Positions 42,441 to 56,600 of a stretch of DNA of 64,000 nucleotides are shown piece after piece; the first letter of the stretch is position 1, and each line of letters opens with the position of its first letter. The translations under genes were made by a program, and so were the position numbers. Source of the stretch: Candidatus Pacearchaeota archaeon (lineage in GTDB: Archaea; Nanobdellota; Nanobdellia; Pacearchaeales; GW2011-AR1); contig JAGVXI010000013.1 of the NCBI GenBank assembly GCA_018303855.1, positions 34,735 through 98,734 of the forward strand. Reading direction: 5' to 3'. The notes under the pieces are model-generated. The model was not told where the DNA came from. It was given only the letters and a program-made list of their open reading frames with translations, and searched no databases.

Positions 42441-42806
42441 TTACCTATTCAACAAAGCCTCCTCAATTATCTTAACCCCAAGATATCTATTGTTTTTGAA
42501 TTTACTTGCAACATAGATTACAATTGGCCTTTCTATTTCTCCAAGACTTTTTTCAAACAATTTGTCTATTTTTCCATTTTCTTTAATTGCTTTCCATAAG
42601 TTAATTGGTTCTTGCCCATTTTCACTTTTAATTATTGAGGCAATTTTCGGGATTATTACCTCAAGAGCTTTTTGTATTTTTTCTTTTAGATGCTCCTCGT
42701 CATACTTACTGCCCTTGTATTCCTTTACAAATTCAATAGATAGATTCTGAATTCCTTGCATTTTCTTACTTTGAACTGTCAACAATTTCTTTGATGTCCA
42801 TTTCAA
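42441..42806 (-). CDS. hypothetical protein
   Basis: 121-aa ORF between thioredoxin and DUF302. No motif. Confidence 0.3.
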   Translation of the reverse strand: MKWTSKKLLTVQSKKMQGIQNLSIEFVKEYKGSKYDEEHLKEKIQKALEVIIPKIASIIKSENGQEPINLWKAIKENGKIDKLFEKSLGEIERPIVIYVASKFKNNRYLGVKIIEEALLNR

Positions 42807-43155
42807 CCCACTCAGCTTCTTCTTTGCTTACCTCTGGAAAGAATTGGGAGATTATTGTAGGTTTCATTCCAACAATTTTTACTCTCCCGCCTTCTTCTAA
42901 AACGTTTATTTTACATGGCATACAAAGAGATATCAACCTGTTTTTATTAAGAAAATTATTTGCATGTTTTCCAGAGCAAATCTCAATTATCTTTAATGGT
43001 TTCTGCTCAAAACCTTTTGCTGCTAATCTTTCTTTAACATCATAAATCTGAAACAAACTCCAGCCTTTTTGTTCAACAGCTTTTAAAATAGACACAACAG
43101 CTTCATCAAAATTTTTGTCTGTTTCAACAACATATGCAAAATCTTCTGTTTTCAT
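42766..43155 (-). CDS. DUF302-domain protein (cassette A)
   Basis: 129 aa, about 85% identical to 54019-54408. KGWSLFQIYD...LKIIEICSGKHAN fits DUF302. Confidence 0.65.
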   Translation of the reverse strand: MKTEDFAYVVETDKNFDEAVVSILKAVEQKGWSLFQIYDVKERLAAKGFEQKPLKIIEICSGKHANNFLNKNRLISLCMPCKINVLEEGGRVKIVGMKPTIISQFFPEVSKEEAEWVEMDIKEIVDSSK

Positions 43156-43367
43156 CTTTTTCTTATGTCAGAATTTTGTATTTGCTTAATTAGCCATACT
43201 ATAAATAAGATTAAAGCAATAAAAACAAGGGTCATAAATAACCATCCAAATAACCACATTCCTCCAAAGCCCACCATCCCCATGCTTCCAAAACCAAATC
43301 TCCAAAAACCTAAAAATAATAAAAGAACAGATACTATGATTACAATTATTAAATTATCGTCTTTCAT
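43152..43367 (-). CDS. small Gly/Met/Trp-rich membrane protein (cassette A)
   Basis: 71 aa with GFGSMGMVGFGGMWLFGWLFM and C-terminal VWLIKQI. Paralog at 53382-53594. ATGA overlaps with neighbours. Confidence 0.45.
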   Translation of the reverse strand: MKDDNLIIVIIVSVLLLFLGFWRFGFGSMGMVGFGGMWLFGWLFMTLVFIALILFIVWLIKQIQNSDIRKR

Positions 43368-43636
43368 TTTCCTTTTTGATTAGCCATCAAAGATTTAACA
43401 AGCCAGACAATAACTGCCACTATTAAAACAAGTAATAAGGTGTTTACTAATACAATTGTAACATTAAAAGAATTTTTATAAGAGTCATAATAACCTGGAT
43501 AATTATTCATCATTCCTCCTCCAGAACCCCCCATATTCATCATCATTTGCATCATGCCACTCGATTCACCACAATAAATTCCTTTAGCCATGTTTATATG
43601 AACCTGTCTTAAACTTTCACTTCCTTCTCCACCCAT
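43364..43636 (-). CDS. Met/Gly-rich tail-anchored small protein (cassette A)
   Basis: MGGEGSESLRQVHINMAKGIYCGESSGMMQMMMNMGGSGGGMM... then a C-terminal TM. The first 32 codons are 100% nt-identical to the paralog at 54405-54737. Start chosen at the internal ATG preceded by GGAG. Confidence 0.5.
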   Translation of the reverse strand: MGGEGSESLRQVHINMAKGIYCGESSGMMQMMMNMGGSGGGMMNNYPGYYDSYKNSFNVTIVLVNTLLLVLIVAVIVWLVKSLMANQKGK

Positions 43637-43823
43637 CTTCTCCAGGATGCATTTGTTCCATGTAATAATCCCCAATAGCCTCGAGTTGTTCATCTGTGAG
43701 TTTATCACAACTAATTCCCGAATCTACAAGCTTTTTTGTTTCAGTAAGGTTATGCTCATGGGCAAGCACAAATGCACTAAATAGCATAATCAATAACACT
43801 ATAGGCAGAGCTATTTTTTTCAT
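43617..43823 (-). CDS. small secreted protein with signal peptide (cassette A)
   Basis: MKKIALPIVLLIMLFSAFVLAHEH... then SCDKLTDEQLEAIGDYYMEQMH. AGGAG sits 7 nt upstream. The 3-prime end overlaps the Met-rich gene by 20 nt in the +1 frame. Confidence 0.5.
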   Translation of the reverse strand: MKKIALPIVLLIMLFSAFVLAHEHNLTETKKLVDSGISCDKLTDEQLEAIGDYYMEQMHPGEDGWRRK

Positions 43824-44398
43824 TTTTCTCCTGTGTCTTTTGTTAAGACAATCCCATAATGATACGGTTTTAAATCATATTTCATTGGATGATTAAACCC
43901 GGAATTTACAGCTAATTCAATGCTTTGTTCTGGCTTAAGCCTAAGTTCCATTGGAGGTCCTCTGGGAGTTGTAGGGTCATAATTCCAATGAATAATCCCA
44001 ACCCTCCTTTCTGGTTTTAAAATTCGATAAGCTTCTTCAAGTAGTTTATTTGGCCTGTCTTTAATAAGAATATTAAAAAGAATAACATAATCAACACTTT
44101 CGTCTTCAAGTCCAGTGCCATCTGACATAAAATCACGAAGAATTGCTTTAACATTCTTTAATTTGTGCTCCCTTGCTTTTCTTTGTGTCTCTTTAATCAT
44201 CTTTGGCTCTATATCAAGAGCATAAACTTTTCCCTTTACAATTTTTGCAGCAGGTATGGTAAATATGCCGTAACCACAACCAAAATCAACCAAATTCTCA
44301 ATTTTCTTGTCAATTCCCATTACCTTAAAGATTCTTTCCACATCAAAGAATTTTCTCCACATTTTTTCTTGTGGCATTCCACTTTCCCTAACTTTCAT
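43820..44398 (-). CDS. small class I SAM-dependent methyltransferase (cassette A)
   Basis: VDFGCGYGIFTIPAA (motif I), ALDIEPKM and VGIIHWNY. 192 aa. 72% identical to 55705-56268. Confidence 0.65.
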   Translation of the reverse strand: MKVRESGMPQEKMWRKFFDVERIFKVMGIDKKIENLVDFGCGYGIFTIPAAKIVKGKVYALDIEPKMIKETQRKAREHKLKNVKAILRDFMSDGTGLEDESVDYVILFNILIKDRPNKLLEEAYRILKPERRVGIIHWNYDPTTPRGPPMELRLKPEQSIELAVNSGFNHPMKYDLKPYHYGIVLTKDTGEK

Positions 44399-44723
44399 TT
44401 TTGCTCCTTATTTTTTTGATTAACTTCTCATTTTTTTTAAGCTGTTTAAATAAAATGTCCCTCATAATGTCGCAGGCTTTAATCATCTCTGGATAAGCTA
44501 AGCTATAGTAAATATTCTTGCCGTTTCTTTTTGTTAAAACAAGATTTTTCTGCCTTAAGATAGTAAGGTGCTGTGAGATAGTTGACTGGGAAATTTTAGT
44601 AAGATTCACTAACTCGCCTACATTTCTTTTCTTATTTCTTAATAGATTTATGATCTCCAATCTTACAGGATTTGAAAGCGTTTTACATATTTCAGCATGA
44701 ATTTCATATAATTCTTTGTTCAT
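44388..44723 (-). CDS. ArsR/SmtB family transcriptional regulator (cassette A)
   Basis: LSNPVRLEIINLL...VGELVNLTKISQSTISQHLTILRQKNLV is the ArsR HTH. About 90% identical to 56265-56600. Confidence 0.7.
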   Translation of the reverse strand: MNKELYEIHAEICKTLSNPVRLEIINLLRNKKRNVGELVNLTKISQSTISQHLTILRQKNLVLTKRNGKNIYYSLAYPEMIKACDIMRDILFKQLKKNEKLIKKIRSKNES

Positions 44724-44894
44724 ATCATATTAGGATATTCTAATATTTAAATATCTTTCGCTTATTTGTTGTATATAATACAGCGCATGTTTAATGACTT
44801 TCCAATAAGATAAAAAGAGACATCTGTTAATAAAAATAAGTTTATCATAAAAAATAAGCAGTATTATAGTAGTAATTAGTTAAAAGTATTGTTA

Positions 44895-45662
44895 TTAAAA
44901 AGCATTAATCTCCCCCCCAACTTCCAAAATCCTTCGCATGAGCCTTTCAGCTGGCAGATGCTTTGTACTGAGAGGAACAAAAAAATTCCCCTTTACTCTT
45001 TTTTTGTCAGCACTCACAGAAATCCCAGCAGAATTAATCAGCTCCTTATCATTGTAATTATCTCCAATTGCAAGAACATTCTTCTTTTTTAGTTTTAAAA
45101 GTTTAATTAACTTCTTTAACCCAACTGATTTTGTTTGTTTGCCTTTCAATCCAATATCATAAGCTTCGCTGTTCCATATAAAATACAGCTCTTTATGTTT
45201 AGAAATAATTTTTTCTATTGCTTTAACTCTCTTTTTGCAATGAATTGTTATTGTAAACTCCTTTGGCTCAAATCCTTTTATGCTTTTGCTTTTAATCTGC
45301 CTTAACTTTTCAAAAACTTCTTTTAGTCGTGAAAAGCTGTTAACATGTTGATAAACCTTGCCGTTAAACCATGTTGCACTTCCATTTTCATATGTTAAGC
45401 TCATATAAAGCAAAACATCTGCAAACATTTTTTCAAGCATATATAAGCCTCTTCCAGAATTAATGTTAATGTAAAAGCCTTTATTGTGAAGCTGTTTAAT
45501 CAGTTCAATCTCGCTTTTAGGAATTTTTTTAATTTTAATGTTAAGATATTGCCCATGCTGGCTTATTTCAGTTCCTCTTGGTACAAGAATGCCGTCAACA
45601 TCAAATACAATTAACTTAATGTTTTTTATGTCCTCTTTTTTTAGCTCACTTAGGGGGTTCAT
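44895..45662 (-). CDS. HAD-superfamily hydrolase, subfamily IIB (Cof-like)
   Basis: LIVFDVDGIL (motif I) and VLAIGDNYNDKELI (motif IV). Confidence 0.65.
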   Translation of the reverse strand: MNPLSELKKEDIKNIKLIVFDVDGILVPRGTEISQHGQYLNIKIKKIPKSEIELIKQLHNKGFYININSGRGLYMLEKMFADVLLYMSLTYENGSATWFNGKVYQHVNSFSRLKEVFEKLRQIKSKSIKGFEPKEFTITIHCKKRVKAIEKIISKHKELYFIWNSEAYDIGLKGKQTKSVGLKKLIKLLKLKKKNVLAIGDNYNDKELINSAGISVSADKKRVKGNFFVPLSTKHLPAERLMRRILEVGGEINAF

Positions 45663-45766
45663 TATTATAAATAAACCACGTATAATTATTTTATAAAGTT
45701 AAGCATGAGGTTAATTATTTAAACATAGTTTGCTATGTTAATGCTATAGTAAATTAAAAGAGGAAA

Positions 45767-45917
45767 AATGATAAAACCAAAATGCAATATATGCAAAAAA
45801 GAGCTTAATGATTTTGGAGCTTTGCTTTTTTCACCTCCAGACAACAAAAACAAAGTTGATAAAAAGCATATTTGCAAAGAATGCTATAACAAATTAAAGG
45901 AAGAGTTTGGGTTGTAA
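45767..45917 (+). pseudogene. small zinc-ribbon protein split across two frames (apparent +1 frameshift near 45840)
   Basis: Frame 1 gives MIKPKCNICKKELNDFGALLFSPP... and stops at 45857. The adjacent frame gives ...NNKNKVDKKHICKECYNKLKEEFGL* ending 45917. Together they form a clean CxxC-N24-CxxC ribbon. Read by eye, so coordinates are approximate. Confidence 0.3.
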
Positions 45918-46458
45918 GATGAAAAAGAAAGATGGGGATCGGCTACAAATATACCTCATAAGACATGGTGAAAAAGACAAAGAAGGAAAGCATCTATCTC
46001 AAAACGGAATTAAACAATCTAAACTATTAGCAAAAGAATTAAGTAAAATAAAATTTAATAAGATTTATTCAAGTGATTTAGAAAGATGCATAGAAACGAC
46101 TAATCTTCTAAATAAAAAATTTAAGATAAAGGTGCTTTACAAGTCTGGGTTAAGGGAGGTTAAGGGAAAAGTTAAGGAATTTCCTAAAAAACATAAAAAA
46201 GAAATAAGCAATATAAAAACAGTTTATAACAAATTAATAAAAGAAAAGGGAAAAATTCTTGTTATTAGTAGCGGAATTGTGAATAGGATATTGTTGAGCA
46301 TGTTCCTAAAAATAGAGCCAAGCAAGGCAAATTTTATTCAAAATCCAACAGGGGTTAATTTAATTGATAAAAATATAGAAAAGAACAGATTTAGAATTTT
46401 ATACATGAATAGCACTTCCCATCTTCCAGATAAATTAAAAATAAGACAGATAGAATAA
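45907..46458 (+). CDS. histidine phosphatase (phosphoglycerate mutase-like) family protein
   Basis: LQIYLIRHGEKD is the RHG motif. Confidence 0.55.
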   Translation: MGCKMKKKDGDRLQIYLIRHGEKDKEGKHLSQNGIKQSKLLAKELSKIKFNKIYSSDLERCIETTNLLNKKFKIKVLYKSGLREVKGKVKEFPKKHKKEISNIKTVYNKLIKEKGKILVISSGIVNRILLSMFLKIEPSKANFIQNPTGVNLIDKNIEKNRFRILYMNSTSHLPDKLKIRQIE

Positions 46459-46472
46459 TTGTTACAAATAAA

Positions 46473-47231
46473 ATGAAACACATCTCACTTTCAAAGATCA
46501 CAACTCGCGGAAAAGCTCTTTATTTAGCTTATGACCAAGGAATAGAACATGGTCCCTCAACTGACTTTAATGATAAAAATGTCAATCCTCTTTATATTTT
46601 AGACATTGCAAAAAAAGGAAAATTCAATGGGATTGTTTTTCAAAAAGGCATTGCTGAAAAATACAACAAGGAGATAAGAAAAAGCAAAGTTCCTTTGATT
46701 TTAAAGTTAAATGGAAAAACAAAGTTGTTTAAAGGCGAGCCATTGTCAGCTCAGATTTGCAGTGTTGATGAAGCTATTAATCTTGGAGCAAAAGCAGTTG
46801 GTTTCACAATTTATGTTGGAAGCCAGCACGAAGAACAAATGCTTGAAGAATTTGCAAAGATTGAATCCCAAGCTCATAAAAAGGGCTTGCCTGTTATTGC
46901 CTGGATTTATCCTCGCGGAAGTTCAGTAAAAAAATACTATTCTAAAGAGCTTATGGCATATGCTTCCAGAGTTGGTTTGGAAATTGGAGCAGATATTGCA
47001 AAAATAAACTACAATGGCAATCCAAAAGATTTGCAATGGGCTGTTAAATCAGCTGGCAGATGCAAAGTAGTAATTGCCGGCGGTGTTAAGTTAAGGGAAA
47101 AAGAATTTTTGAAGCAAGCCAAAGATATAATGCAAGCTAGTTGCATGGGCTTAGCAGTAGGAAGAAATGTCTGGCAGGCTAAAAAGCCTTTGGAAGTTGC
47201 GAGGAAATTAAAGAGGATTGTTTTTGGATGA
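46473..47231 (+). CDS. class I fructose-bisphosphate aldolase, archaeal type (DhnA/FbaB family)
   Basis: GADIAKINYNG contains the Schiff-base lysine region. 252 aa, between the glycolytic neighbours. Confidence 0.65.
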   Translation: MKHISLSKITTRGKALYLAYDQGIEHGPSTDFNDKNVNPLYILDIAKKGKFNGIVFQKGIAEKYNKEIRKSKVPLILKLNGKTKLFKGEPLSAQICSVDEAINLGAKAVGFTIYVGSQHEEQMLEEFAKIESQAHKKGLPVIAWIYPRGSSVKKYYSKELMAYASRVGLEIGADIAKINYNGNPKDLQWAVKSAGRCKVVIAGGVKLREKEFLKQAKDIMQASCMGLAVGRNVWQAKKPLEVARKLKRIVFG

Positions 47232-47334
47232 AAGTAATTTTATTTTCGACTTTTAGCAATCGCAACATTTAAATAGTAATATCAGTTGATATTATCATAA
47301 CTTTGTATAAAATTTAGGTAAAATTTGTTAGAAA

Positions 47335-47640
47335 ATGGCAGCACAAATAAAACAAAAAAAACCATATGCTGATATAAATAATATAGCGAGAAGTCCAACG
47401 CTCCAAACAGTTTTAATGGTTGAGAAATTTATTGATAATAATAGCGGGGAGTATAAAAAAACAGATTTATTCAAAAATCTACCAAGGAAAGTAATGTGGC
47501 AAACTTTTCAAGTAATAATGGAATACCTTGAAAGCATATATAAAATAGTGTATGATAGAGATGGTTATGTTGTATATATCTGGAACCCAGAGTTTGCTGC
47601 AAGGTATAAAAATAGAGATGATTTAGAATGGAAGGAATAA
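47335..47640 (+). CDS. hypothetical protein, possible antitoxin of downstream RelE-like gene
   Basis: It overlaps the downstream gene by 13 nt. No motif. Confidence 0.3.
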   Translation: MAAQIKQKKPYADINNIARSPTLQTVLMVEKFIDNNSGEYKKTDLFKNLPRKVMWQTFQVIMEYLESIYKIVYDRDGYVVYIWNPEFAARYKNRDDLEWKE

Positions 47641-47951
47641 TTATATTCTCTGGTGGAGAGTTAAAAAAAGCTTTTGAGGATCTTAAAGAAAAAGACCCTA
47701 AATTACACAGGCATATTGAAAAAGCTCTTTCTGAAATTCGAAGCAATGTTTTTTGTGGTAGAAATGTAAAGAAAAATTTAATCCCCAAGATATTAATTCA
47801 AAAGTATAATATAAACAATCTTTGGATTTATAATCTTCCAGAAGGCTGGAGACTGTTATATGCCCTTACATCACCAGATAAAATTAAAGTTTTAGCAATT
47901 ATCCTTGATTGGATGAGCCATAAAGATTATGAGAGGTTATTTAAATTTTAA
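47628..47951 (+). CDS. RelE/ParE-like toxin-fold protein
   Basis: NLWIYNLPEGWRLLYAL...VLAIILDWMSHKDYERLF resembles the RelE/ParE C-terminal core. Confidence 0.4.
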   Translation: MEGIIIFSGGELKKAFEDLKEKDPKLHRHIEKALSEIRSNVFCGRNVKKNLIPKILIQKYNINNLWIYNLPEGWRLLYALTSPDKIKVLAIILDWMSHKDYERLFKF

Positions 47952-47952
47952 A

Positions 47953-48573: not shown

Positions 48574-48626
48574 GAGTTTAAAAATAAAAAAATTTATAAG
48601 TACAATATGGTTTAATACAGCATAAA

Positions 48627-48857
48627 ATGCCAGTAACAATTTATTCAACATCAACTTGTCCTTTCTGCAAGGCAGCAAAGTCTTTTTTTAAAGAGCATAA
48701 AATAAAGTTCAAAGACATTGATGTTTCTAAAAATAAAAAAGCAGCTGAAGAAGCTTATAAAAAATCAGGGGTAAATGCTGTTCCGGTTATTGATATAAAT
48801 GGGATAATAATTATTGGATTTGATCAAAATAAAATAGAAAAAGCACTTAAATTATAA
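48627..48857 (+). CDS. glutaredoxin-like protein (NrdH/Grx, CPFC)
   Basis: VTIYSTSTCPFCKAAKSFF, 76 aa. Confidence 0.65.
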   Translation: MPVTIYSTSTCPFCKAAKSFFKEHKIKFKDIDVSKNKKAAEEAYKKSGVNAVPVIDINGIIIIGFDQNKIEKALKL

Positions 48858-48868: not shown

Positions 48869-51163
48869 TCAAATCCTCTTTCTTCTTAATAAATTAGCAT
48901 TTGTAACAACAGTTATACTTGATAAAGCCATTGCAATCTCTGCAATAATAGGATGAAGCAAACCCGCAACTGCAACAGGAATGGCAATTGTGTTATATGC
49001 AAAAGCCCAGAATAAATTCTGCTTTATTTTTGAGAAAGTTGCCTTGCTTAAGTTTATTGATTGAACAACTCCATTTAATGAACCTTTAACAAGAACAATA
49101 TCGCCTGCTTCTATTGCAATATCTGTCCCTGTTCCCATTGCAATTCCAACATTGCTTTCTTTAAGTGCAGGGGCGTCATTTATTCCATCTCCAATAAACG
49201 CAACCATTGCTTGTTTTTTCAATTCATTGATTTTTTTTGCCTTGTCTTCTGGCAACACATTTGCTATAACTTCTTTAATTCCAACTTGTTTTGCAATTGC
49301 TTGGGCTGTTTTTTCATTATCCCCAGTTATCATAATTGTTTTATAATCTTCCATATTTAATTTATTAATGGCTTCAATTGAATCTTCTTTAACAGCATCT
49401 GCAATTCCAATAATTCCTATTGCCTTTCCGTTATCAGAAACAATAATTGTAGTAAACCCTTTGCTTTCAAATTCATTTATTTTATTATTAAATTCTTTAA
49501 GATTTATCCCTCTCTCTTTCATTAGGGTTGAATTTCCTATAACTATGCTTTTTTTGCCTATTTCTCCCTCAACTCCTCTTCCTCTTAAAATCTTAAATGC
49601 TTTTACTTCCCTGTATTTTTTTAAATTAGCTTTTTCAACAACAGCTTTTGATAATGGATGCTCACTTAGCTTTTCCAAGCTTGCTGCAACTTCCATTAAA
49701 TATCCTTCCCCAATTTCTGCATAAACTGCCCTAACTTCTGGCTTTCCTTTTGTTATTGTTCCTGTCTTGTCAAACACAATTATTTTAATCTCTTTCATTG
49801 TTTGGATTGCTTCGCCCTTTCTTATGAGAATGCCTCTTTTTGCACCCATACCACTTCCAACCATTAAAGCAGTAGGTGTTGCCAAACCCAAAGCACAAGG
49901 ACATGCGATAACTAAAACAGAAACAGCAACACCTATGGCCCTGCTTAAATCCTTATTAAAATAAAACCAGGCAATAAAAGTTAAAATTGTTATAACTAAA
50001 ACAACAGGCACAAAAACACTTGTTATTTTGTCAGCAAGTGCTTGTATAGGAATTTTTGTTCCCTGGGCTTGCTCAACAAGTTTTATAATATTGGATAAAA
50101 AAGTATCTTTTCCTATTTTAGTTGCTTTAATATACAAAACCCCGTCTTGATTAAGTGTTGCACCAATTACTTTGTCTCCTTTGGCTTTATCAATAGGCAA
50201 GCTTTCACCAGTAACCATGCTTTCATCAACAGCACTTTCTCCTTTAACTATGACTCCGTCTGTTGGAATTTTTTCTCCTGGCTTCACTATTATAACATCA
50301 TTAATTTTAACTTCCGAAATAGAAATCTCAAATTCTTTGTTATTTCTTAAAACAAGGGCATTTTTCGCGCCTAATTCAAGAAGTTTTTTTATTTCTTGGC
50401 TCGCTTTACCTCTTGCCTTCACTTCAACATACTTTCCTGTTAGGAAAAAGGCCATAATCATTGCACTTATGCCAGAATAATCTTGAACATTTATGAAGAA
50501 ACTTAAAACTCCAGTTAAATAAGCAACAACAGTCCCAAGTGCAATCAAAGAATCCATATTAAAATAAAAACTAGTAAATCCCTTTAATCCGCCCTTGAGG
50601 GTTTGAAAACCTAAAACAAATATAATCGGAAAAGAGATAATAAGCAAAACAAATGTCATTTGTTCCGGTGTATTAAACACCTTTAAGCCAAATAATCTTT
50701 CAGAAAACATAATAATAGCTATTGGAATAGTTATCAACCAAGCCCAAATAGTCTTTTTAAACCAAGATTTAATTTCCTTTTCCTCAACACTTCCATGCAC
50801 ATGTTCATTCATCTCTTCGTGGTGTGGATGCTCTTCTTTTTTATGTTCAGAATGTTTTAAATGTTCAATCTGCCTATTATCCTGTCTATCATCAGTAGGC
50901 TCTTTATATTCAATTGACTTATCTTTATTATCCTGCTTATCTTCTTCAAACTCAATTTTTTTAGCGGCATAACCTCCAACTCTTGAAACAGCTTTTTTCA
51001 AATCACTTTCACTAATATCCCCCTCAATTTCAACAAAGCCCTTCTTGGCCATTAAATTAACACTTGCACTTTTTACGCCTTTAACTTTCTTTAAGCTTTT
51101 TTCTATATTAGATGCACAACTAGCACAATGCATTCCTTCAATTTGTATTGTTGCTTTTTTCAT
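48869..51163 (-). CDS. copA: copper-translocating P1B-type ATPase
   Basis: N-terminal HMA domain [12 protein letters not shown], His-rich linker, TM CPC motif [29 protein letters not shown]. Confidence 0.85.
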
Positions 51164-51260
51164 TTTTTATTATTGTTATATCCTAACTTTATATATTCAA
51201 TTCTTTATTAATCATTGCCAGCATTATTTACCATTTTAACTTTTAATCTCTTTATTATAC

Positions 51261-51527
51261 CTACTTAATATTGTTATAAACTACTGTAAAAAGCCAGCCA
51301 ATTATCAGGCTAAGCACAATAATCTCAATTAATCCAGCAATTGTGCTTGATATTGGAACTGTGTCTCTTGCAATTTTGCTTATATCAATTCCGTGAAACA
51401 ATGCTCCAAATGTGCTTACAGTCCATGTTGGGACTATAGCAACAAAAATTGCGCACACTATATAAACAACTCCTGCAACTATTGCCAGTGAATAAGCAAT
51501 TCCCTTTGGGCTTAATTTTTCAACCAT
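51261..51527 (-). CDS. small membrane protein
   Basis: 88 aa, 2-3 TM. Confidence 0.35.
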   Translation of the reverse strand: MVEKLSPKGIAYSLAIVAGVVYIVCAIFVAIVPTWTVSTFGALFHGIDISKIARDTVPISSTIAGLIEIIVLSLIIGWLFTVVYNNIK

Positions 51528-51545
51528 GTTTTATTTTACCCCCTT

Positions 51546-52154
51546 TTATTTTTCTGATTCTTCTTCAATAATATTTTTAATCAGCTCTTTGTTTGCCCCA
51601 AAAACCTTTCTTCCGTTTATGAAAAAAGTTGGGGTTCCCTGAACATCTAGCATCTTTCCGTCATTTAAATCTCTTTCCACTTCGTATTTATACTTTTCAG
51701 AATCTAAACATGAATTAAATTGTTCCTTATTCAACTCGATTTGTATCGCATAGAGCTTTAAACTTTCTTTATCCAGCTTATTTTGATTTTCAAATAAAAT
51801 GTCATGATACTGCCAGAATTTTCCCTGTTCATTGGCACATTCAGCTGCTTCTGCCGCAATAAAAGAATTCTCATGTATTGTTAGGGGAAAATTCCTGTAA
51901 TAAAATACAACATTCTGTTCATTTAAGATTTCATTTATTATAGGTAATGAAGCTTTGCAGGCAGGACACTGAAAATCTGAAAATTCTATGATGATAGTGC
52001 TTGAATCTGAATTTCCTTTTGCAGGGTTTATTCCATTGCCAACATTTTTATAAATCTCTATTGCAGATTTCGGAAGACTAATGTAAATTAGAACCCCAGT
52101 TAATAATATTATAACTAACCCAATAATTACTACTCCTTTATTATCTCCATTCAT
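51546..52154 (-). CDS. DsbA-family thiol:disulfide oxidoreductase, N-terminal TM anchor
   Basis: FSDFQCPACKAS (CPAC active site) and GTPTFFINGRKV cis-Pro region. Confidence 0.65.
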   Translation of the reverse strand: MNGDNKGVVIIGLVIILLTGVLIYISLPKSAIEIYKNVGNGINPAKGNSDSSTIIIEFSDFQCPACKASLPIINEILNEQNVVFYYRNFPLTIHENSFIAAEAAECANEQGKFWQYHDILFENQNKLDKESLKLYAIQIELNKEQFNSCLDSEKYKYEVERDLNDGKMLDVQGTPTFFINGRKVFGANKELIKNIIEEESEK

Positions 52155-52288
52155 TTTTTATTTTCAACAGCATATTTAGTTATTTCAAGATTACAGGATT
52201 TATGTTTCCTGCACCAAGCTTCACATTTTTTTGCAAAAGCTTTTGAATTGTATAACATTCCACATGCCCCACATTTAAAATATCCCAT
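52151..52288 (-). CDS. small Cys-containing protein translationally coupled to dsbA (ATGA overlap)
   Basis: MGYFKCGACGMLYNSKAFAKKCEAWCRKHKSCNLEITKYAVENKK. Its stop TGA overlaps the dsbA ATG. Not in the ORF track (under 60 aa). Confidence 0.35.
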   Translation of the reverse strand: MGYFKCGACGMLYNSKAFAKKCEAWCRKHKSCNLEITKYAVENKK

Positions 52289-52442
52289 CTTTCTTATTAT
52301 GACTTCTTTAATCATTATCTATTTTAAAATCATTTCTCTTTTGGTTTTTTCTTTCCGTCACAGCAACTCATTTTGTTTTTTCTCATTGCATTTAATAAAA
52401 AATTATGCATTTTTCTTAATTTTTCAAGAATTTTTACCATTT

Positions 52443-52673
52443 TTATGATGGAAAGTGTTCTACACAATATCCCTTTATCTCATTGTCTTTAATCATGTCA
52501 CAATATTCCCCATTTAACGTCTGATGCGCAAGATCATGCCAGCAATTATCATCTCCAGGACTGCATTGTTCTGTAGATACTGAATTGCCTGAGATTGTTT
52601 TGTATAATGTAAGAATAAGAGTAGATGTAATTATAAAAATCACGATTAATGCTATTAAATCTATCTTTTTCAT
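52443..52673 (-). CDS. small membrane-anchored Cys-rich protein
   Basis: N-terminal TM then CSPGDDNCWHDLAHQTLNGEYCDMIKDNEIKGYCVEH. Confidence 0.35.
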   Translation of the reverse strand: MKKIDLIALIVIFIITSTLILTLYKTISGNSVSTEQCSPGDDNCWHDLAHQTLNGEYCDMIKDNEIKGYCVEHFPS

Positions 52674-52674
52674 T

Positions 52675-52941
52675 TTATTTAAAATAATCCAAGCAGTATA
52701 AAGTATTTTGATGATGACTTAAATGCTCTTTCCAGTCATTAATGCTCTCCTCATATTCTGGTAACTTGCATTCTGCCGGAATAGGATCTAAGCGATATTT
52801 GTCTAGTTCTTGGTTATTTTGTTTATTAATATTTTGAACAACCTTCCCTGTTGCATTTACTTTAATGAACACAGCTACTGTTAATGACAGAATAACAAAA
52901 ACCAGCCCAATATATATTAGATCTTTATTTATCGTTATCAT
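52675..52941 (-). CDS. small membrane-anchored protein with Cys/His-containing ectodomain
   Basis: N-terminal TM then CKLPEYEESINDWKEHLSHHQNTLYC. Confidence 0.35.
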   Translation of the reverse strand: MITINKDLIYIGLVFVILSLTVAVFIKVNATGKVVQNINKQNNQELDKYRLDPIPAECKLPEYEESINDWKEHLSHHQNTLYCLDYFK

Positions 52942-53371
52942 TTTTCTTTTCTTTGTTTACTTGGTGATATATAACCCCAATTCCAATAATGTTTGAAGCA
53001 ACACCGATAAGAAGAAATTGTAATGTGTATTTGGATAATACTGATAATCCAGAAATTCCAATAACTGCTCCAAGAAACGGGAGTATATTAAGAATATAAT
53101 GGCTGCAGCATAAAATCATGCTAATTGCAGAAATCCCCCCAGATGCAACACTTGTTGAACAGCTTATTGCGTTAAGAGAATTATAGTATGTGAATAAACC
53201 GATTTGCAAACCAAATCCCCCAATAAGCAGAATAATGAGAATGTAATATCTTCTTATAATCTCTGTTGCCATTAAAGGGAAACCTAAGATGTAAAGCACA
53301 ATTAAATTTATAGTTAAAACTATCAAAATTGCACCAATTCCATAAATCCATGCTTTTGTTTTTATGTCCAT
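52925..53371 (-). CDS. polytopic membrane protein
   Basis: 148 aa, about 4 TM, with CC pair (MILCCSHY). Confidence 0.35.
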   Translation of the reverse strand: MDIKTKAWIYGIGAILIVLTINLIVLYILGFPLMATEIIRRYYILIILLIGGFGLQIGLFTYYNSLNAISCSTSVASGGISAISMILCCSHYILNILPFLGAVIGISGLSVLSKYTLQFLLIGVASNIIGIGVIYHQVNKEKKNDNDK

Positions 53372-53381
53372 AGTTTTTTTA

Positions 53382-53594
53382 TTAGTTAGATATCCGAATT
53401 TGTTTAATCAACCAAACAATTAATAATACTAATACAACAATAATTAATAGCATAAAAATCCATCCAAAAAACCACATGCTTCCGAAGCCATAATTAAACA
53501 TACCCATTACCCCCCACATATCTCCAAAACCTCCGAACAGGAATAATGCTAAAATTATTGCTATAACCACAACCAGCGTGTTATCGTTTTTCAT
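53382..53594 (-). CDS. small Gly/Met/Trp-rich membrane protein (cassette B paralog of 43152-43367)
   Basis: GGFGDMWGVMGMFNYGFGSMWFFGWIFM...VWLIKQI. Confidence 0.45.
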   Translation of the reverse strand: MKNDNTLVVVIAIILALFLFGGFGDMWGVMGMFNYGFGSMWFFGWIFMLLIIVVLVLLIVWLIKQIRISN

Positions 53595-53962
53595 TTTCTC
53601 TCACCTCCTTTTAATTTCCTCAAAATATGAATGCAATGTTCAGCCATGTGTTTGTCAATTAAACCCATAAGAGGCTTTATTGTCTGCTCATTTAACCTAT
53701 AATATCTGTATTTTCCTTCAATTTCAACATCCACAAACCCACAATCTTTTAATCTTGATAAGTCATGTGAGACAGCTGTTTGATCTATTTTCAGCTCTTT
53801 AATAATTTCAGACACATTTTTACTGCCTTTCCTTAATAAGTTTATTATCTTTAATCTTGACTCGCTTATAAGAGTTCCAAAAAATATTTTATATGCTCCG
53901 TAAATTTCCTCTTTATAAAACCCCTCCTTATGGAATGATTTTAATATGGCTTTATTTATCAT
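53591..53962 (-). CDS. ArsR-like HTH regulator
   Basis: RLKIINLLRKGSKNVSEIIKELKIDQTAVSHDLSRLKDCGFV. Confidence 0.55.
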   Translation of the reverse strand: MINKAILKSFHKEGFYKEEIYGAYKIFFGTLISESRLKIINLLRKGSKNVSEIIKELKIDQTAVSHDLSRLKDCGFVDVEIEGKYRYYRLNEQTIKPLMGLIDKHMAEHCIHILRKLKGGERK

Positions 53963-54018
53963 ATGAAAACTAAGTACATACAGCTATTTAAGGTTTTCTA
54001 TCCTCATTTTTTAATGTC

Positions 54019-54408
54019 TTATCTTGCTTTATCCACAATTTCTTTAATATCTTTTTCTACTTCTTCAGTTTTTTTTCGACTAACCTCAGGAAAGAATTGG
54101 GAAATTATTGTAGGTTTCATTCCAGCAATCTTTATCTTTCCATTTTCTTCAAGGACATTTATTTTACACGGCATACAAAGAGATATTAACCTGTTTTTAT
54201 TAAGAAAAATATTTGCGTGTTTTCCAGAGCAAATCTCAACTATCTTTAATGGTTTCTGCTTAAATCCCTTTGCAGCCAATCGTTCTTGGATATCATAAAT
54301 CTGAAACAAACTCCAACCTTTTTGTTCAACTGCTTTCAGCACTGAAATAACAGCCTCATCAAAACTTTTATTGGTTTCAACAATATATGCAAAATCTTCT
54401 GTTTTCAT
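54019..54408 (-). CDS. DUF302-domain protein (cassette B)
   Basis: Paralog of 42766-43155. Confidence 0.65.
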   Translation of the reverse strand: MKTEDFAYIVETNKSFDEAVISVLKAVEQKGWSLFQIYDIQERLAAKGFKQKPLKIVEICSGKHANIFLNKNRLISLCMPCKINVLEENGKIKIAGMKPTIISQFFPEVSRKKTEEVEKDIKEIVDKAR

Positions 54409-54737
54409 TTTTTTCTACGCCCTATACCTCTTCCAGAACTCTTTATCTGTTTAATCAACCAAACTATCAGTAGAACTAAAATAATAATCACAAGAATAAT
54501 AAATAACCAACTAAACACATTGTAACCACTATAGTAGCTTCCATTTATTCCTTGCATCATGCTACCCTGTATATTTTGTCCTCCCATCATACCTCCAGAA
54601 CCGCCCATTATTCCACCAGAACCCATCATGTTGCCCCCCATCATCATTTGCATCATGCCACTCGATTCACCACAATAAATTCCTTTAGCCATGTTTATAT
54701 GAACCTGTCTTAAACTTTCACTTCCTTCTCCACCCAT
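54405..54737 (-). CDS. Met/Gly-rich tail-anchored small protein (cassette B)
   Basis: MGGEGSESLRQVHINMAKGIYCGESSGMMQMMMGGNMMGSGGIMGGSGGMMGG... then C-terminal TM LLIVWLIKQI. Confidence 0.5.
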   Translation of the reverse strand: MGGEGSESLRQVHINMAKGIYCGESSGMMQMMMGGNMMGSGGIMGGSGGMMGGQNIQGSMMQGINGSYYSGYNVFSWLFIILVIIILVLLIVWLIKQIKSSGRGIGRRKK

Positions 54738-54918
54738 GCATTTGTTCCATGTAATAATCCCCAATAGCCTCAAACTGTGCATCAGTAAAATTGTTGCAGC
54801 TAATATTAGAATTAATAAGCTGTTTTGTTTCAGCAAAACTCTGTTCATGAGCTGATACTAAGAATGCAATTAGTAGTAATATTCCAAAGGCGAATATTGT
54901 TAGTGTTATTTTTTTCAT
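54718..54918 (-). CDS. small secreted protein with signal peptide (cassette B)
   Basis: MKKITLTIFAFGILLLIAFLVSAHEQS...SCNNFTDAQFEAIGDYYMEQMHGWRRK. GGAGGT sits 7 nt upstream of the internal ATG chosen as start. Confidence 0.5.
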   Translation of the reverse strand: MKKITLTIFAFGILLLIAFLVSAHEQSFAETKQLINSNISCNNFTDAQFEAIGDYYMEQMHGWRRK

Positions 54919-54997
54919 TTTGATACCTCCATTACATTTATTATTACTATATCTGGAATAAGTATCTTGCCACTTAAACCGTTTTAAACCATTATTA

Positions 54998-55468
54998 TCA
55001 TCTTTGCAAATATACATTGTAAGTTTTTCCTGTCCTTTTTCTTTGAATTAAATTTCTCTTATCTAAATTAGTTAAAATTGTTGAAATCTTGGCTTTACTC
55101 CAGTCTAATCTAAACCTTAATGAATCTTGGGTAATTTCCCCAGCTTTTTTTATCTCATCTAAAATATCTTTTTCATCTTTTGACAAAGCTTTTCTTAAGA
55201 TACTATATTCTTTTTCTTTATTTTCATGCTTAAATAAATAAAAGGAAACAAAAAAAACCACAAGAAGTGCAATAATTAATGATATCAAGGTTATAACCGT
55301 AGATTTATTATTAGAACTCCTTATCTGATCCATCATATCTGCCATCGAAGTTGGCTCCTTAACAAAAATTTGGCTTAATATCAAAAGCATAATAAGATAT
55401 AATATAACTCCCACTAACAGAATAAACAATACCTTTGACACATTGTTTATATTTTGTAAATTATTCAT
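54998..55468 (-). CDS. membrane-anchored winged-HTH protein
   Basis: N-terminal TM plus C-terminal ...ISTILTNLDKRNLIQRKRTGKTYNVYL. Similar architecture to 63027-63506. Confidence 0.45.
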   Translation of the reverse strand: MNNLQNINNVSKVLFILLVGVILYLIMLLILSQIFVKEPTSMADMMDQIRSSNNKSTVITLISLIIALLVVFFVSFYLFKHENKEKEYSILRKALSKDEKDILDEIKKAGEITQDSLRFRLDWSKAKISTILTNLDKRNLIQRKRTGKTYNVYLQR

Positions 55469-55691
55469 TTTTCCCCCAGGTTATTTTATTCCACGCGCGT
55501 TCGTGATAATAATAGATAATGATCTTTAAAGTTATTTCAAAAAAACCTACACCAAAGGAGATAATAAAGCTTTTTGTAAAAATAAATACTAAAATTATCG
55601 TTGTAAGTGTTGCAATTATTCTCCAACTAATGCTTTTAACAATACTTCTCTTATGTGTGTCTATTATTTTTTTGTGTTTATCTTTTTTCAT
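55461..55691 (-). CDS. DUF2061 family membrane protein
   Basis: KRSIVKSISWRIIATLTTIILVFIFT...IIYYYHERAWNKITWG. Confidence 0.5.
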   Translation of the reverse strand: MKKDKHKKIIDTHKRSIVKSISWRIIATLTTIILVFIFTKSFIISFGVGFFEITLKIIIYYYHERAWNKITWGKNE

Positions 55692-55704
55692 TTTTATCTT
55701 TAGC

Positions 55705-56268
55705 TTACTTTCTTAAAACAATCCCATAATGATAAGGTTTAAGATTATACATTTTGGGATTGTTAAATCCAAATAAAACAGCTAATTCAATGCTTTGTTT
55801 TGGCTTAAGTCTAAGTTCCATTGGAGGTCCTCTGGGGGTTGTTGTATCATAATTCCAATGAATAATCCCAACTCTCCCTTCTGGTTTTAAAATCCGATAA
55901 GCTTCTTCAAGTAGTCTGTTTGGTTTATCTTTAGTAAGAATATTAAACAGCAGGACATAATCTACACTTTTATCACCAAGTCCGGAACCTTTGGACATAA
56001 AATCACGAAGCATAGTTTTTATATTATTCAATTTATATTCTCTTGCGCCTTTTTGTGTTTCTTCAATCATCTTTGGTTCTATATCAATAGCATAAACCTC
56101 TCCTTTCACTATCTTCGCAGCAGGAACAGTAAAGGTCCCATAACCGCATCCAAAATCTGCTACATCTTTAACCTCTTGATTTAGCCCCAAAGTTCTTAAT
56201 ATTCTGTCAGGTACGAAAAAATTTTCCCACATTTTTTCTTCTGGCATGCCACTTTCTTTAATTTTCAT
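55705..56268 (-). CDS. small class I SAM-dependent methyltransferase (cassette B)
   Basis: ADFGCGYGTFTVPAA and AIDIEPKM. Paralog of 43820-44398. Confidence 0.65.
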   Translation of the reverse strand: MKIKESGMPEEKMWENFFVPDRILRTLGLNQEVKDVADFGCGYGTFTVPAAKIVKGEVYAIDIEPKMIEETQKGAREYKLNNIKTMLRDFMSKGSGLGDKSVDYVLLFNILTKDKPNRLLEEAYRILKPEGRVGIIHWNYDTTTPRGPPMELRLKPKQSIELAVLFGFNNPKMYNLKPYHYGIVLRK

Positions 56269-56600
56269 TTTCCCCTCCTGATTTTTTGGACTAACTTTTC
56301 ATTTTTCTTAAGCTGTTTAAATAAGATATTTCTCATAATATCACAAGCTTTGATCATTTCAGGATAAGCCAGGCTATAGTAAATATTTTTCCCTTTTCTT
56401 TTTGTCAAAACAAGGTTCTTTTGCCTTAAAATAGTAAGATGCTGGGATATAGTTGACTGGGATATTTTAGTAAGATTCACTAACTCGCCGACACTTCTTT
56501 TTTTGTTTCTTAATAGATTTATAACCTCTAATCTTACAGGATTTGATAGTGTCTTGCATATTTCAGAGTGGATTTTATACACTTTTTTGTTCATAATCAT
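56265..56600 (-). CDS. ArsR/SmtB family transcriptional regulator (cassette B)
   Basis: Paralog of 44388-44723. Confidence 0.7.
   Translation of the reverse strand: MIMNKKVYKIHSEICKTLSNPVRLEVINLLRNKKRSVGELVNLTKISQSTISQHLTILRQKNLVLTKRKGKNIYYSLAYPEMIKACDIMRNILFKQLKKNEKLVQKIRRGK

Follow-up and report, generated by a model that had tools for sequence, protein, structure and literature searches.

SilE and PcoE, the periplasmic Ag(I)/Cu(I) "molecular sponges" of the enterobacterial sil and pco systems, are exported, His/Met-rich proteins with repeated HxxM, MxxH and MxxM motifs on helices (HxxM/MxxH being the Ag(I)-binding motifs of SilE), and are encoded, under metal-responsive control, next to a P-type ATPase efflux system (PMC5008109, PMC11904771). 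In archaea, genes for a SHOCT membrane protein and a DUF302 protein adjoin the CopA-type ATPase loci of the copper fitness islands of Cuniculiplasma divulgatum S5 and ARMAN Mia14, where the island is doubled in one genome; these islands rely on CopZ as chaperone and on a regulator of the Lrp/AsnC type (PMC5498576). Silver induces a SHOCT membrane protein in Haloferax alexandrinus (PMC10694973). The Bacillaceae yrk/cst-like reactive-sulfur cluster of Cytobacillus plasmid NZ_CP085393 combines an ArsR-rhodanese fusion and a class-I methyltransferase (MTase) of about 190 aa, directly before DUF302, with rhodanese, TusA, DsrE, Grx, a persulfide-dioxygenase-like MBL protein, a further TusA and TauE. 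As for regulators, Rv0081, PagR and NolR (repressors without metal sites) and the two-Cys sulfur-sensor group of BigR, HlyU, SqrR and sHdrR are small winged-helix repressors that regulate themselves by binding to palindromes within the promoters of their own genes. Two conserved Cys are the defining feature of the ArsR proteins that sense sulfane sulfur (PMC12423496).

The window analysed here, a 64,000-nt stretch of contig JAGVXI010000013.1 of a Candidatus Pacearchaeota archaeon, resembles each of these in part. As in the archaeal islands, a SHOCT-family membrane protein and DUF302 adjoin a CopA locus, and there are two copies. The Lrp/AsnC regulator and CopZ set those islands apart from the window, and the ArsR1 regulator, Met-rich ectodomain protein, MTase and operator considered below are not described there. 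The system itself is uncharacterised, the link of SHOCT and DUF302 to copper islands being a passing note of one sentence, without functional analysis (PMC5498576). The Met-rich protein shares with SilE and PcoE its export, composition, helical motifs and ATPase neighbourhood, but neither sequence nor fold homology to them is detectable. Unlike SilE, which is soluble and disordered before metal binding, it folds into a helical domain that holds two invariant Cys, continues in a low-complexity Met/Gly tether and a membrane anchor at the C terminus, and often has a cytoplasmic SHOCT tail. The Cytobacillus plasmid has the ArsR-family regulator, MTase and DUF302 in common with the window, and a DsrE-family protein nearby; it differs in the rhodanese fusion and in the presence of rhodanese, TusA, persulfide-dioxygenase-like and TauE proteins, and it lacks CopA as well as any Met-rich or SHOCT membrane protein. 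Its MTase, itself split, is about 39% identical over 54 aa only.

Two paralogous cassettes

Translation of the open reading frames (ORFs) places two paralogous cassettes on the minus strand, at about 42.8-44.7 kb (copy A) and 53.4-56.6 kb (copy B), where the preliminary description had put them.

Copy A:
42161-42806, minus: p121 (no family) and thioredoxin, probable end of the copy-A operon
42766-43155, minus: DUF302_A, 129 aa, cytoplasmic (PF03625, 3.8e-13; PDB 1q9u, 1j3m)
43152-43367, minus: TM peptide A, 71 aa, two hydrophobic helices and a Gly/Met/Phe/Trp loop
43364-43823, minus: Met-rich gene, broken by a 23-nt deletion at 43637/43636 (intact, 160 aa)
43538-43637, minus: 100-nt tract, 100% identical to 54639-54738, remnant of a 168-nt block
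43820-44398, minus: MTase_A, class-I SAM-dependent, 192 aa (Methyltransf_25/31/11 matches; 11-nt overlap with ArsR1)
44388-44723, minus: ArsR1_A, ArsR/SmtB family, 111 aa (HTH_5, 2e-15)
44727-44746, minus: putative ArsR1 operator A, 20-bp palindrome ATATTAGAATATCCTAATAT, directly after a TTTAAATA TATA box

Copy B and the adjacent ArsR2 array:
48869-53371, minus: rest of the ArsR2 array, with a 148-aa membrane protein, small proteins, p54, DsbA, DUF5676 and the CopA P-type ATPase
53382-53594, minus: TM peptide B, 70 aa, in the ArsR2/CopA array
53591-54018, minus: ArsR2, start of the second operon, with its own promoter (TATA box and two CATATG elements)
54019-54408, minus: DUF302_B, 129 aa (Pfam)
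54405-54918, minus: Met-rich gene, broken by a 35-nt deletion at about 54738/54737 (intact, P0001)
54998-55468, minus: DUF7343, membrane-anchored winged-helix protein (PF24034, 3e-11)
55461-55691, minus: DUF2061, small membrane protein (PF09834, 1.8e-16)
55705-56268, minus: MTase_B, 187 aa (Pfam)
56265-56600, minus: ArsR1_B, 111 aa (Pfam)
56599-56618, minus: putative ArsR1 operator B, ATATTCGGATATTCTAATAT, after TTTAAATA (repeat family D8)

Pfam returned the gene identities proposed earlier, i.e. ArsR (HTH_5), class-I SAM MTase and DUF302, together with the extra genes of copy B (DUF2061, the membrane winged-helix DUF7343 and a second ArsR). The strings quoted in the preliminary description, MMQMMMNMGGSGGGMM and GMVGFGGMW, are both present in the window, and CopA, DsbA, a CopG-like DUF411 protein and a cupredoxin were confirmed as neighbours of the cassettes, in which genes of the operon overlap by 4 nt. 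The notion of one shared gene set holds for ArsR1, MTase, the Met-rich gene and DUF302, which are paralogous, but not for TM peptide B: since it overlaps by 4 nt behind ArsR2, which has its own promoter, it is part of the ArsR2-to-CopA operon and not of the ArsR1 cassette.

The CopA gene is flanked by the two diverged operon copies, between which DNA repeats of 300 nt show 81-86% identity. At the protein level the pairs are 90.6% (ArsR1), 82.2% (DUF302), 72.7% (MTase) and 59% (TM peptide) identical. These values do not fit a segmental duplication in the sense of a simple recent event, as the MTase and DUF302 pairs are no closer than either is to orthologues in other organisms (up to 72.2% and 85.6%, respectively). 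The two ArsR1 proteins, on the other hand, are at most 76% identical to their orthologues, and the 168-nt block, the sole exact repeat longer than 150 nt, is 100% identical between the copies in intact genes, whereas the same region is only 72-86% identical in other genomes. For ArsR1 and this tract the sequences therefore appear to indicate gene conversion between old paralogues.

Two ORFs of a single Met-rich gene

The preliminary description recognised a secreted peptide (43617-43823 in copy A, 54718-55017 in copy B) and a separate tail-anchored Met-rich protein (43364-43708 and 54405-54848). These are the halves of one gene, because in 678 homologues a single ORF of 160-215 aa spans both halves, and contigs 99.95% identical to the window encode intact proteins of 160 aa (A) and 215 aa (B). 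The intact gene occurs in at least 17 such contigs, from several samples of the same population. The tail-anchored topology without a signal peptide was likewise a product of the split, the intact protein consisting of a signal peptide, a Cys/His/Met helical domain, a Met/Gly tether and a TM helix. Both deletions in the window are frameshifting and remove conserved His and Met residues. Both fall inside the 168-nt block and have a boundary in common, which is exactly 100 nt away from the end of the repeat, so that the split probably arose in assembly.

In the AF2 model the helical domain (pLDDT 84-95) is followed by a disordered tether and the TM helix. Alignment of homologues revealed invariant (C41, C94, H85, M57, M69, M73) and near-invariant (H61, H66, M60, M72) ectodomain residues, which form the motifs MEQMH, HELM, MDxMM and HINM. 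The domain has no model in Pfam or NCBIfam and the protein no PDB relative by sequence or by fold, in agreement with the earlier view of an undescribed module. Its TM helix and that of TM peptide A are related at the DNA level (repeat family D4). TM peptide A belongs to the SHOCT family of membrane proteins but lacks the SHOCT tail (PF09851), which homologues of about 100 aa carry.

Regulation and gene order in other genomes

ArsR1_A scored 85.7 bits against the NCBIfam HTH_metalloreg model (cut-off 55), and the preliminary description spoke of a metal-sensing or detoxification module. For ArsR1, metal sensing is not supported, since the orthologue alignment contains none of the canonical metal sites (alpha3, alpha3N, alpha5) and the closest solved relatives in the PDB are Rv0081, PagR, NolR, HlyU and BigR (E 5e-15 to 3e-11). 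Only His9 and Cys13 are conserved in the family; the second Cys of the window proteins is Phe in orthologues (alpha5), and the alpha2 position is Asn. ArsR1 thus differs from the BigR/SqrR group, having neither sensing Cys and a conserved His9-x3-Cys13 in helix 1, and from all the repressors named above in that its probable target is an archaeal TATA-box promoter.

Operator A ends 4 nt ahead of the ArsR1 ATG, which implies a leaderless transcript. The palindrome has two sites in the window against 0.08 expected, and a TATA box with a 20-bp palindrome lies upstream of ArsR1 in 40/40 orthologous promoters from other genomes. ArsR1 most likely binds the palindrome ATATTAGAATATTCTAATAT, which lies between the TATA box and the start of the leaderless transcript, so that bound ArsR1 would block initiation; a stress signal would then release it and end repression.

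The conserved operon is represented by 368 loci in species-level genomes, nearly all DPANN. In the 80 genome loci used for neighbourhood counts, ArsR1 is directly upstream of the Met-rich gene in 40, the TM peptide downstream in 30 and DUF302 nearby in 23, so the gene order is conserved and not a chance juxtaposition; the core order of ArsR1, Met-rich protein, SHOCT-family TM peptide and DUF302 is shared by many DPANN genomes, across which DUF302 is 82-86% identical. DUF7343 is not obligatory but turns up repeatedly ahead of the Met-rich gene, after ArsR1 or the MTase (26/80 loci; four have it in the equivalent position), and in four loci p121 again comes after DUF302, in some cases together with thioredoxin. 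DUF2061 is found in none of the 160 comparison loci, only in copy B of the window lineage.

The MTase is an optional, generic member, near the Met-rich gene in just 9-11 of the 80 genome loci, and hence a module of "very small membrane peptides plus a methyltransferase" is not an adequate description. Its 2323 homologues, about 65-72% identical, are all annotated only as generic class-I MTases, and the closest solved structures (3dh0, 3i9f) are structural-genomics MTases without assigned function. Gene orders in 80 MTase-anchored metagenome loci match those of the genome loci; the full order ArsR1, MTase, Met-rich gene, TM peptide, DUF302 was found again in groundwater metagenome contigs, and the commonest arrangement is MTase then DsrE (at least 25/80). 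The DsrE-like CxxC protein (ACGTC), the usual MTase partner elsewhere, stands at the end of ArsR1 operons in 22/80 genome loci, and is absent from the window cassettes.

The C-terminal motif D-x-H-x5-C-x-H of ArsR2 (D-H-C-H, alpha5-like) is conserved. ArsR2 followed by the TM peptide was found again in six loci, arrays of ArsR2, TM peptide, p54 (Cys-rich, DUF7128) and CopA recur among genome loci, and for each remaining array member, 12-25 of the 80 loci have it close to the Met-rich gene. A copper link of the module is plausible, since CopA lies within 2.5 kb on the same strand as the Met-rich gene in 15/80 loci, directly 3' in about 8. DUF411/CopG is near it in 18/80 and DsbA in 12/80.

Copper, sulfur and other explanations

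The preliminary description likened the MTase in size to TehB-like tellurite/selenite methyltransferases. In a metalloid function of this kind, As, Se or Te would be methylated and detoxified by an ArsR-controlled TehB- or ArsM-like MTase. The pairing of ArsR with a SAM MTase, best NCBIfam matches to the SAM-binding part of ArsM models, a weak TPMT match of MTase_B (E=0.003) and the Rifle groundwater origin of the source aquifer contigs are consistent with it. We consider it highly improbable, as TehB gave no match to the window MTases at E<=0.1, the matches to ArsM models reach 47 and 44.5 bits where the cut-offs are 510 and 263 (the preliminary description, too, took the enzyme not to be ArsM), the sole Cys of either window MTase is in the SAM motif DFGCGYG while the other frequent Cys of the family is Ser here, most cassettes are devoid of the MTase, and no arsenic transporter or reductase gene is present. 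That the cassettes are decaying, pseudogenised relics without current function would explain the frameshifts and the lost His and Met residues, but is improbable in view of the intact gene in the same population, the artefact-like deletions and the intactness and strong conservation of all remaining genes.

A serious rival, although in our opinion an unlikely one, is a module against reactive-sulfur, sulfide or thiol stress. Cys13 would allow ArsR1 to detect sulfane sulfur or the oxidation of thiols, the MTase, DUF302, thioredoxin and, in other genomes, the DsrE-like protein would handle or methylate reactive sulfur, and the copper genes would be neighbours since copper and sulfide stress coincide. 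The association of the MTase and of ArsR1 operons with DsrE argues for it, as do the Cytobacillus gene set, DUF302 adjoining DsrE in Salinibacter, DUF302 in sox and SUL modules (PMC5037610, PMC6305408), BigR and HlyU among the closest PDB relatives of ArsR1, and the presence of genes for thioredoxin, glutaredoxin and TusA within the window or close to it. However, the ArsR1 family is devoid of both sensing Cys, genes for DsrE, rhodanese, persulfide dioxygenase and TauE are all missing from the window cassettes, the secreted His/Met-rich ectodomain would be left unexplained, and the Met-rich gene is often fused directly into CopA arrays.

We tentatively prefer, at somewhat less than an even chance, the explanation that the cassettes are two old paralogues of an autoregulated ArsR-family operon defending the envelope against soft thiophilic Cu(I)/Ag(I), because the Met-rich gene adjoins CopA, its product carries HxxM/MxxM motifs and a copper island surrounds it. 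Several observations stand against copper. ArsR1 has no canonical ArsR/SmtB metal sites, and its closest solved relatives are non-metal or sulfur-sensing; ArsR1-type loci have CopA less often than loci without ArsR1 (about 5/40 vs about 20/40); the DsrE-like sulfur-relay protein, the main MTase partner, is as frequent as CopA (22/80); bacterial DUF302 occurs in sulfur-oxidation or persulfide clusters (PMC5037610; PMC6305408); the Met-rich protein has no homology to known copper-binding proteins and no fold match; and both Met-rich genes are frameshifted in the assembly.

Gene content, the unity of the split gene, synteny, the conservation of operator and residues and the linkage to CopA are shown by the sequences; for copper/silver defence we infer what ArsR1 responds to, that the ectodomain binds metal, and what DUF302 and the MTase do. 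The operon encodes a secreted protein with a C-terminal TM anchor, whose folded helical ectodomain, with two invariant Cys, three conserved His and several conserved Met in HxxM/MxxM motifs, precedes a disordered Met/Gly-rich tether; a small SHOCT-family peptide of two membrane helices, the outer loop of which is rich in Gly, Met and aromatic residues; a highly conserved DUF302 protein of the cytoplasm; and, optionally, a 190-aa class-I SAM MTase, membrane-bound DUF7343 and, in other genomes, the DsrE-like CxxC protein. Copy B lies directly upstream of the second, ArsR2-controlled operon ending in CopA. On the external side of the membrane, metal would be bound by the Met/His ectodomain together with the Met-rich loops, which would work as a sponge or take over the ions that CopA exports.

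Two paralogous cassettes and their gene content

ORF listing, combined with Pfam and NCBIfam scans of the window, revealed two minus-strand cassettes.

Gene content of the two cassettes, in window coordinates
Copy A, 44723 to 42766, minus strand: ArsR, 192-aa class-I SAM methyltransferase (MTase), two overlapping small ORFs, 71-aa transmembrane (TM) peptide, DUF302
Copy B, 56600 to 53382, minus strand: ArsR, 187-aa MTase, DUF2061, DUF7343, two overlapping ORFs, DUF302, second ArsR, 70-aa TM peptide

The preliminary description regarded this region as a segmental duplication, with identities of about 90% for ArsR, 72% for the MTase and 85% for DUF302. These figures were essentially right, as pairwise comparison gave 90.6%, 72.7% and 82.2%, respectively, with 59% for the TM peptide and 81-86% DNA identity across 300-nt stretches. 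The two paralogous cassettes are real, but they are not the product of a simple recent duplication: the A and B forms of the MTase and DUF302 are no closer to each other than to orthologues of other organisms (up to 72.2% and 85.6%, respectively). The cassette ArsR proteins (ArsR1) resemble each other far more than they do other ArsR1 proteins, none of which exceeds 76%. The cassettes are either old paralogues or separate acquisitions, which have since been partly homogenised.

DUF2061, DUF7343 and the second ArsR, earlier described as insertions in copy B, are all present, and DUF7343 was recognised by Pfam as a membrane-anchored winged-helix protein. Groundwater metagenome contigs collected around the MTase display either the order ArsR1, MTase, (Met-rich gene), TM peptide, DUF302, or the order ArsR1, MTase, DUF7343, Met-rich gene. 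As the latter is the copy-B arrangement, DUF7343 is better viewed as a recurrent option than as an insertion.

The HMM searches proposed for the small ORFs assigned ArsR, the class-I MTase and DUF302, and left the central domain of the Met-rich protein without a Pfam or NCBIfam model. DUF302 (PF03625, TT1751-like) scored 49.5 and 47.3 bits (cut-off 23), and its closest solved members are PDB 1q9u (E=3.5e-14) and 1j3m (E=6e-4). NCBIfam gave no match for the Met-rich protein, the TM peptide, DUF302, p121 or the 148-aa membrane protein. The cassette DUF302 proteins (42766-43155 and 54019-54408) are 82-86% identical across DPANN genomes whose ArsR1 proteins are only ~57% identical, a conservation that is unusually strong for a protein with no assigned function.

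A single Met-rich gene, interrupted in both copies as assembled

In both copies, the stop codon of the ORF previously described as a secreted peptide overlaps the start of that described as a Met-rich tail-anchored protein. A conceptual fusion of both ORFs retrieved 678 homologues, which are single ORFs of ~160-215 aa covering both halves. Moreover, Rifle groundwater contigs 99.95% identical to the window carry intact genes: a 215-aa copy B (protein P0001, 17 contigs) and a 160-aa copy A. Aligned with these contigs, the window is short of 35 nt (copy B) and 23 nt (copy A), and the residues lost with the deletions are (PGE)AHELMDNM, including conserved His and Met. Intact deletion sites (within 43,500-43,750 and 54,600-54,850) would contain GCACACGAATTAATGGATAATATG.

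The intact A and B genes have in common a 168-nt stretch of 100% identity. Both deletions fall within it, and their right-hand boundaries coincide, exactly 100 nt short of its end. Judging by this arrangement, the deletions most likely stem from local misassembly of a repeat that exceeds the read length, so that the two "unusual small proteins" of the preliminary description probably exist only through that error. The deletions may instead be genuine in the source genome. In either case, as the two ORFs are halves of one gene, the proposed topology (tail-anchored, with no signal peptide) is an artefact: the intact gene begins with MKKIALPIVLLIMLFSAFVLA followed by HEH, a Sec-type signal peptide, and this N-terminus is kept in all aligned homologues.

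Other genomes show only 72-86% identity across the 168-nt block. Its perfect identity in the intact genes is therefore attributed to gene conversion between the copies, and a functional RNA or other nucleotide-level element was rejected as the cause. Programmed frameshifting was also rejected, as the near-identical contigs are in-frame and the window differs from them by deletions of 23 and 35 nt, not by a slippery site. In contigs from three samples (L007:10001-10588, L008 and L009) the left flank of copy B is joined to the right flank of copy A via the identical block. The junction, which corresponds to window position ~43,637 joined to ~54,738, gives a chimeric Met-rich gene (protein P0005) and deletes 11.1 kb including ArsR2 (the second ArsR), CopA and the copy-A ArsR and MTase. 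Such a junction could be either a true population recombinant or an assembler shortcut.

An AF2 model, run on the Met-rich protein P0002, predicts a helical domain of ~70 aa (pLDDT 84-95), then a disordered tether rich in Met and Gly, and a single TM helix. Among 76 relatives, Pfam detected only SHOCT domains, forming a cytoplasmic tail in 22 of them, and low-complexity or TM noise. The central domain matched no Pfam family and no fold relative was found for it; a profile of the 76 members gave no match to PDB sequences at E<=1. Neither the Met-rich proteins nor the TM peptides of the window matched SHOCT (PF09851) in Pfam. Homologues of the TM peptide of ~100 aa do match it, and the window peptides can therefore be considered tail-less SHOCT-family membrane proteins.

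Motifs of the HxxM/MxxH type are repeated and conserved across the Met-rich homologues. Homology to SilE/PcoE was undetectable, both with the profile against PDB sequences and with Pfam on the 76 members. The conserved HxxM/MxxM/His/Cys pattern of the Met-rich protein parallels the motifs with which SilE binds Ag(I)/Cu(I) (PMC5008109, PMC11904771).

Repressors, operators and the methyltransferase

ArsR1 of copy A is a member of the ArsR/SmtB family (PF01022, 56.8 bits, cut-off 22; NF033788, 85.7 bits, cut-off 55), and ArsR1 of copy B and ArsR2 gave similar scores. In both copies a TTTAAATA box is followed at once by a 20-bp palindrome (ATATTAGAATATCCTAATAT and ATATTCGGATATTCTAATAT), which ends 0-4 nt ahead of the ArsR1 start codon; these are its only two matches in the window, with 0.08 expected. 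The same box-palindrome layout, with the consensus ATATTAGAATATTCTAATAT and an ATG ~0-10 nt downstream, was found in each of the 40 orthologous promoters examined. Such conservation is strong evidence, of a comparative kind, that ArsR1 acts as an autoregulated repressor, with a predicted site overlapping the core promoter of a leaderless transcript.

The metal-sensing role initially proposed for ArsR1 was not supported, as it has no alpha3, alpha3N or alpha5 site. The canonical ligand sets (alpha3 CVC, alpha3N and alpha5 DxHx10Hx2E) are absent, helix 3 being devoid of Cys and helix 5 (AYPEMIKACDIMRDIL) of His. Only His9 and Cys13 (HAEMCK) are conserved among the 40 ArsR1 orthologues. The closest solved relatives of ArsR1 are Rv0081, PagR, NolR, HlyU and BigR. 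ArsR sensors of sulfane sulfur possess two conserved Cys, in alpha2 and alpha5, which form a polysulfide bridge (PMC12423496). The ArsR1 family lacks both and does not belong to this class (BigR/SqrR/HlyU/sHdrR/SoxR): when ArsR1 is aligned with HlyU, an Asn (LEIINLL) occupies the place of the alpha2 Cys (LQILCML), and the second Cys of the window ArsR1 (Cys84, alpha5) is Phe in all 40 orthologues.

ArsR2 (window 53591-54018, promoter included) heads a separate operon. Its promoter, conserved among orthologues, combines a TATA box with two CATATG elements, and the start codon lies within the second of these. Orthologue promoters share TTTAAATA together with both CATATG elements. The C-terminal helix of ArsR2 carries a conserved D-x-H-x5-C-x-H, which is suggestive of a metal site with non-canonical spacing, and the true metal sensor of the CopA operon is probably ArsR2. 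Arrays of ArsR2, TM peptide, p54 and CopA, with ArsR2 as the first gene, occur in other genomes. The copy-B TM peptide overlaps ArsR2 by 4 nt and is part of this second operon, running to CopA. The p54 gene (window 52151-52315), which in 13 of 80 loci immediately precedes CopA, encodes a Cys-rich 54-aa protein (CxxC...CxxxC) with a weak DUF7128 match, which may be a small metal-binding partner of the CopA pump.

The MTase is a class-I SAM enzyme (Methyltransf_25, 61 bits, cut-off 27; Methyltransf_11, 55 bits; DFGCGYG motif). Its family (2323 matches, ~65-72% identity, invariant HWNY, PRGP and YHYG) carries only generic names, and the closest structures, 3dh0 and 3i9f, are unannotated structural-genomics entries. 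A TehB-like character, suggested earlier, was not borne out: no TehB family occurs among the 19-21 Pfam families at E<=0.1 or the best 25 of 51 NCBIfam families. The statement that the enzyme is not ArsM was correct, the ArsM models scoring far under their cut-offs (NF008823, 44.5 bits versus 263; NF041537, 47 versus 510). Its single Cys lies within the SAM motif, and the As(III)-binding Cys of ArsM are lacking. The window MTases (43820-44398 and 55705-56268) have Ile or Thr, and Ser, where most relatives have His (NILH) and Cys (EQC); a ligand or catalytic pair kept by those relatives may thus be missing from them.

In metagenomes, the MTase is most often accompanied by a DsrE-family protein of 107 aa that carries an ACGTC...CP motif (e.g. 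L094:6812-7135, and many of the loci in L013-L176). It follows the MTase in at least 25 of 80 metagenome loci, and in 22 of 80 genome loci it closes an ArsR1 operon; no copy lies within the window. An MTase-DUF302 pairing also occurs in bacteria, in a sulfur context: on plasmid NZ_CP085393 of Cytobacillus oceanisediminis (L178, 1590-9826), a cluster headed by an ArsR-rhodanese fusion contains genes for an MBL hydrolase and an MFS transporter, together with a small class-I MTase that is split and DUF302, adjoined by rhodanese, TusA, DsrE, Grx, persulfide-dioxygenase-like, TusA and TauE genes. In Methanolobus, the genes around the solitary MTase orthologue give no clue, and DUF302 adjoining FetAB on an Enterococcus plasmid is uninformative for function.

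Genomic neighbourhoods and possible functions

A scan of one genome per species identified 368 Met-rich loci, nearly all in DPANN (Woese-, Pace-, Nano-, Aenigm-, Iain- and Micrarchaeota), the few others belonging to CPR bacteria or to MAGs that bear the labels Methanosarcinales or Hadarchaeota. The gene-neighbourhood check confirmed that the ArsR1-Met-rich order recurs.

Neighbours of the Met-rich gene in the best 80 of the 368 loci
ArsR1 directly upstream, same strand: 40/80
TM peptide following: 30/80
DUF302 within 2.5 kb: 23/80
MTase near: 9-11/80
CopA within 2.5 kb, same strand: 15/80
CopA anywhere in locus: 25/80

In ~8 of these 80 loci CopA comes directly after the Met-rich gene, and DUF7343, DUF411/CopG, the 148-aa membrane protein, p198, p54/DUF7128, DUF5676, DsbA and ArsR2 each recur in 12-26. 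In the window, the island continues (57136-64000) with DHODH, p164, p198, DUF411 (CopG-like), an FTR1 iron permease, another DUF7343 regulator and a cupredoxin, beyond which a matching contig carries hemerythrin and TusA. The set DUF411, p198 and p164 adjoins the Met-rich gene in other genomes as well.

SHOCT and DUF302 genes flanking copper islands were mentioned in passing for Cuniculiplasma and ARMAN Mia14 (PMC5498576), and a transcriptome study reported a SHOCT membrane protein induced by silver (PMC10694973). We found no functional study of any cassette component in the literature on DUF302/COG3439/TT1751, SHOCT or DPANN copper-ArsR. The system is uncharacterised; in kind, it resembles a repressor-controlled stress operon, with a predicted exported Met/His-rich binding protein beside a P-type ATPase.

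As far as sequence and gene order indicate, the Met-rich protein is tied to copper by direct CopA adjacency, by its HxxM/MxxM/His/Cys pattern and by the surrounding copper island. A soft-metal defence of the envelope is the favoured, if tentative, reading, slightly short of probable; the repressor of the cassette itself has none of the canonical metal sites. The cytoplasmic half of the system (DUF302, the MTase and, elsewhere, DsrE) points towards sulfur or thiol chemistry, in keeping with the Cytobacillus locus. We nevertheless consider a reactive-sulfur module rather unlikely, ArsR1 being outside the sulfane-sulfur-sensing class. Metalloid methylation, for which the MTase would be the candidate enzyme, is unlikely given its ArsM scores.

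A combination of the metal and sulfur functions is also conceivable, and we regard it as improbable. On the outer face of the membrane, Met-rich tethered proteins would capture Cu(I)/Ag(I) or copper-sulfide species. This capture would be coupled to a cytoplasmic sulfur relay and methylation (DUF302, the small SAM MTase and the DsrE-like CxxC protein), under the control of a new single-Cys/His ArsR sensor. This would constitute a previously unrecognised archaeal detoxification system and, if true, would provide the first function for DUF302 and for the MTase family.

The case also calls for caution, since a probable assembly error within a repeat created two apparent small proteins. What is gained is a new, unannotated family of extracytoplasmic His/Met/Cys domains, a defined archaeal operator-repressor pair (predicted), which is directly testable, and genomic handles both on DUF302 and SHOCT membrane proteins, two very widespread orphan families, and on the highly conserved 190-aa MTase. 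DPANN genomes are tiny, yet this one still holds two cassette copies beside a copper pump, and the cassette is present in hundreds of species-level genomes. The nature of its effector, Cu/Ag or reactive sulfur, bears on how episymbiotic archaea devoid of cell-wall compartments cope with thiophilic metals in sulfidic groundwater.
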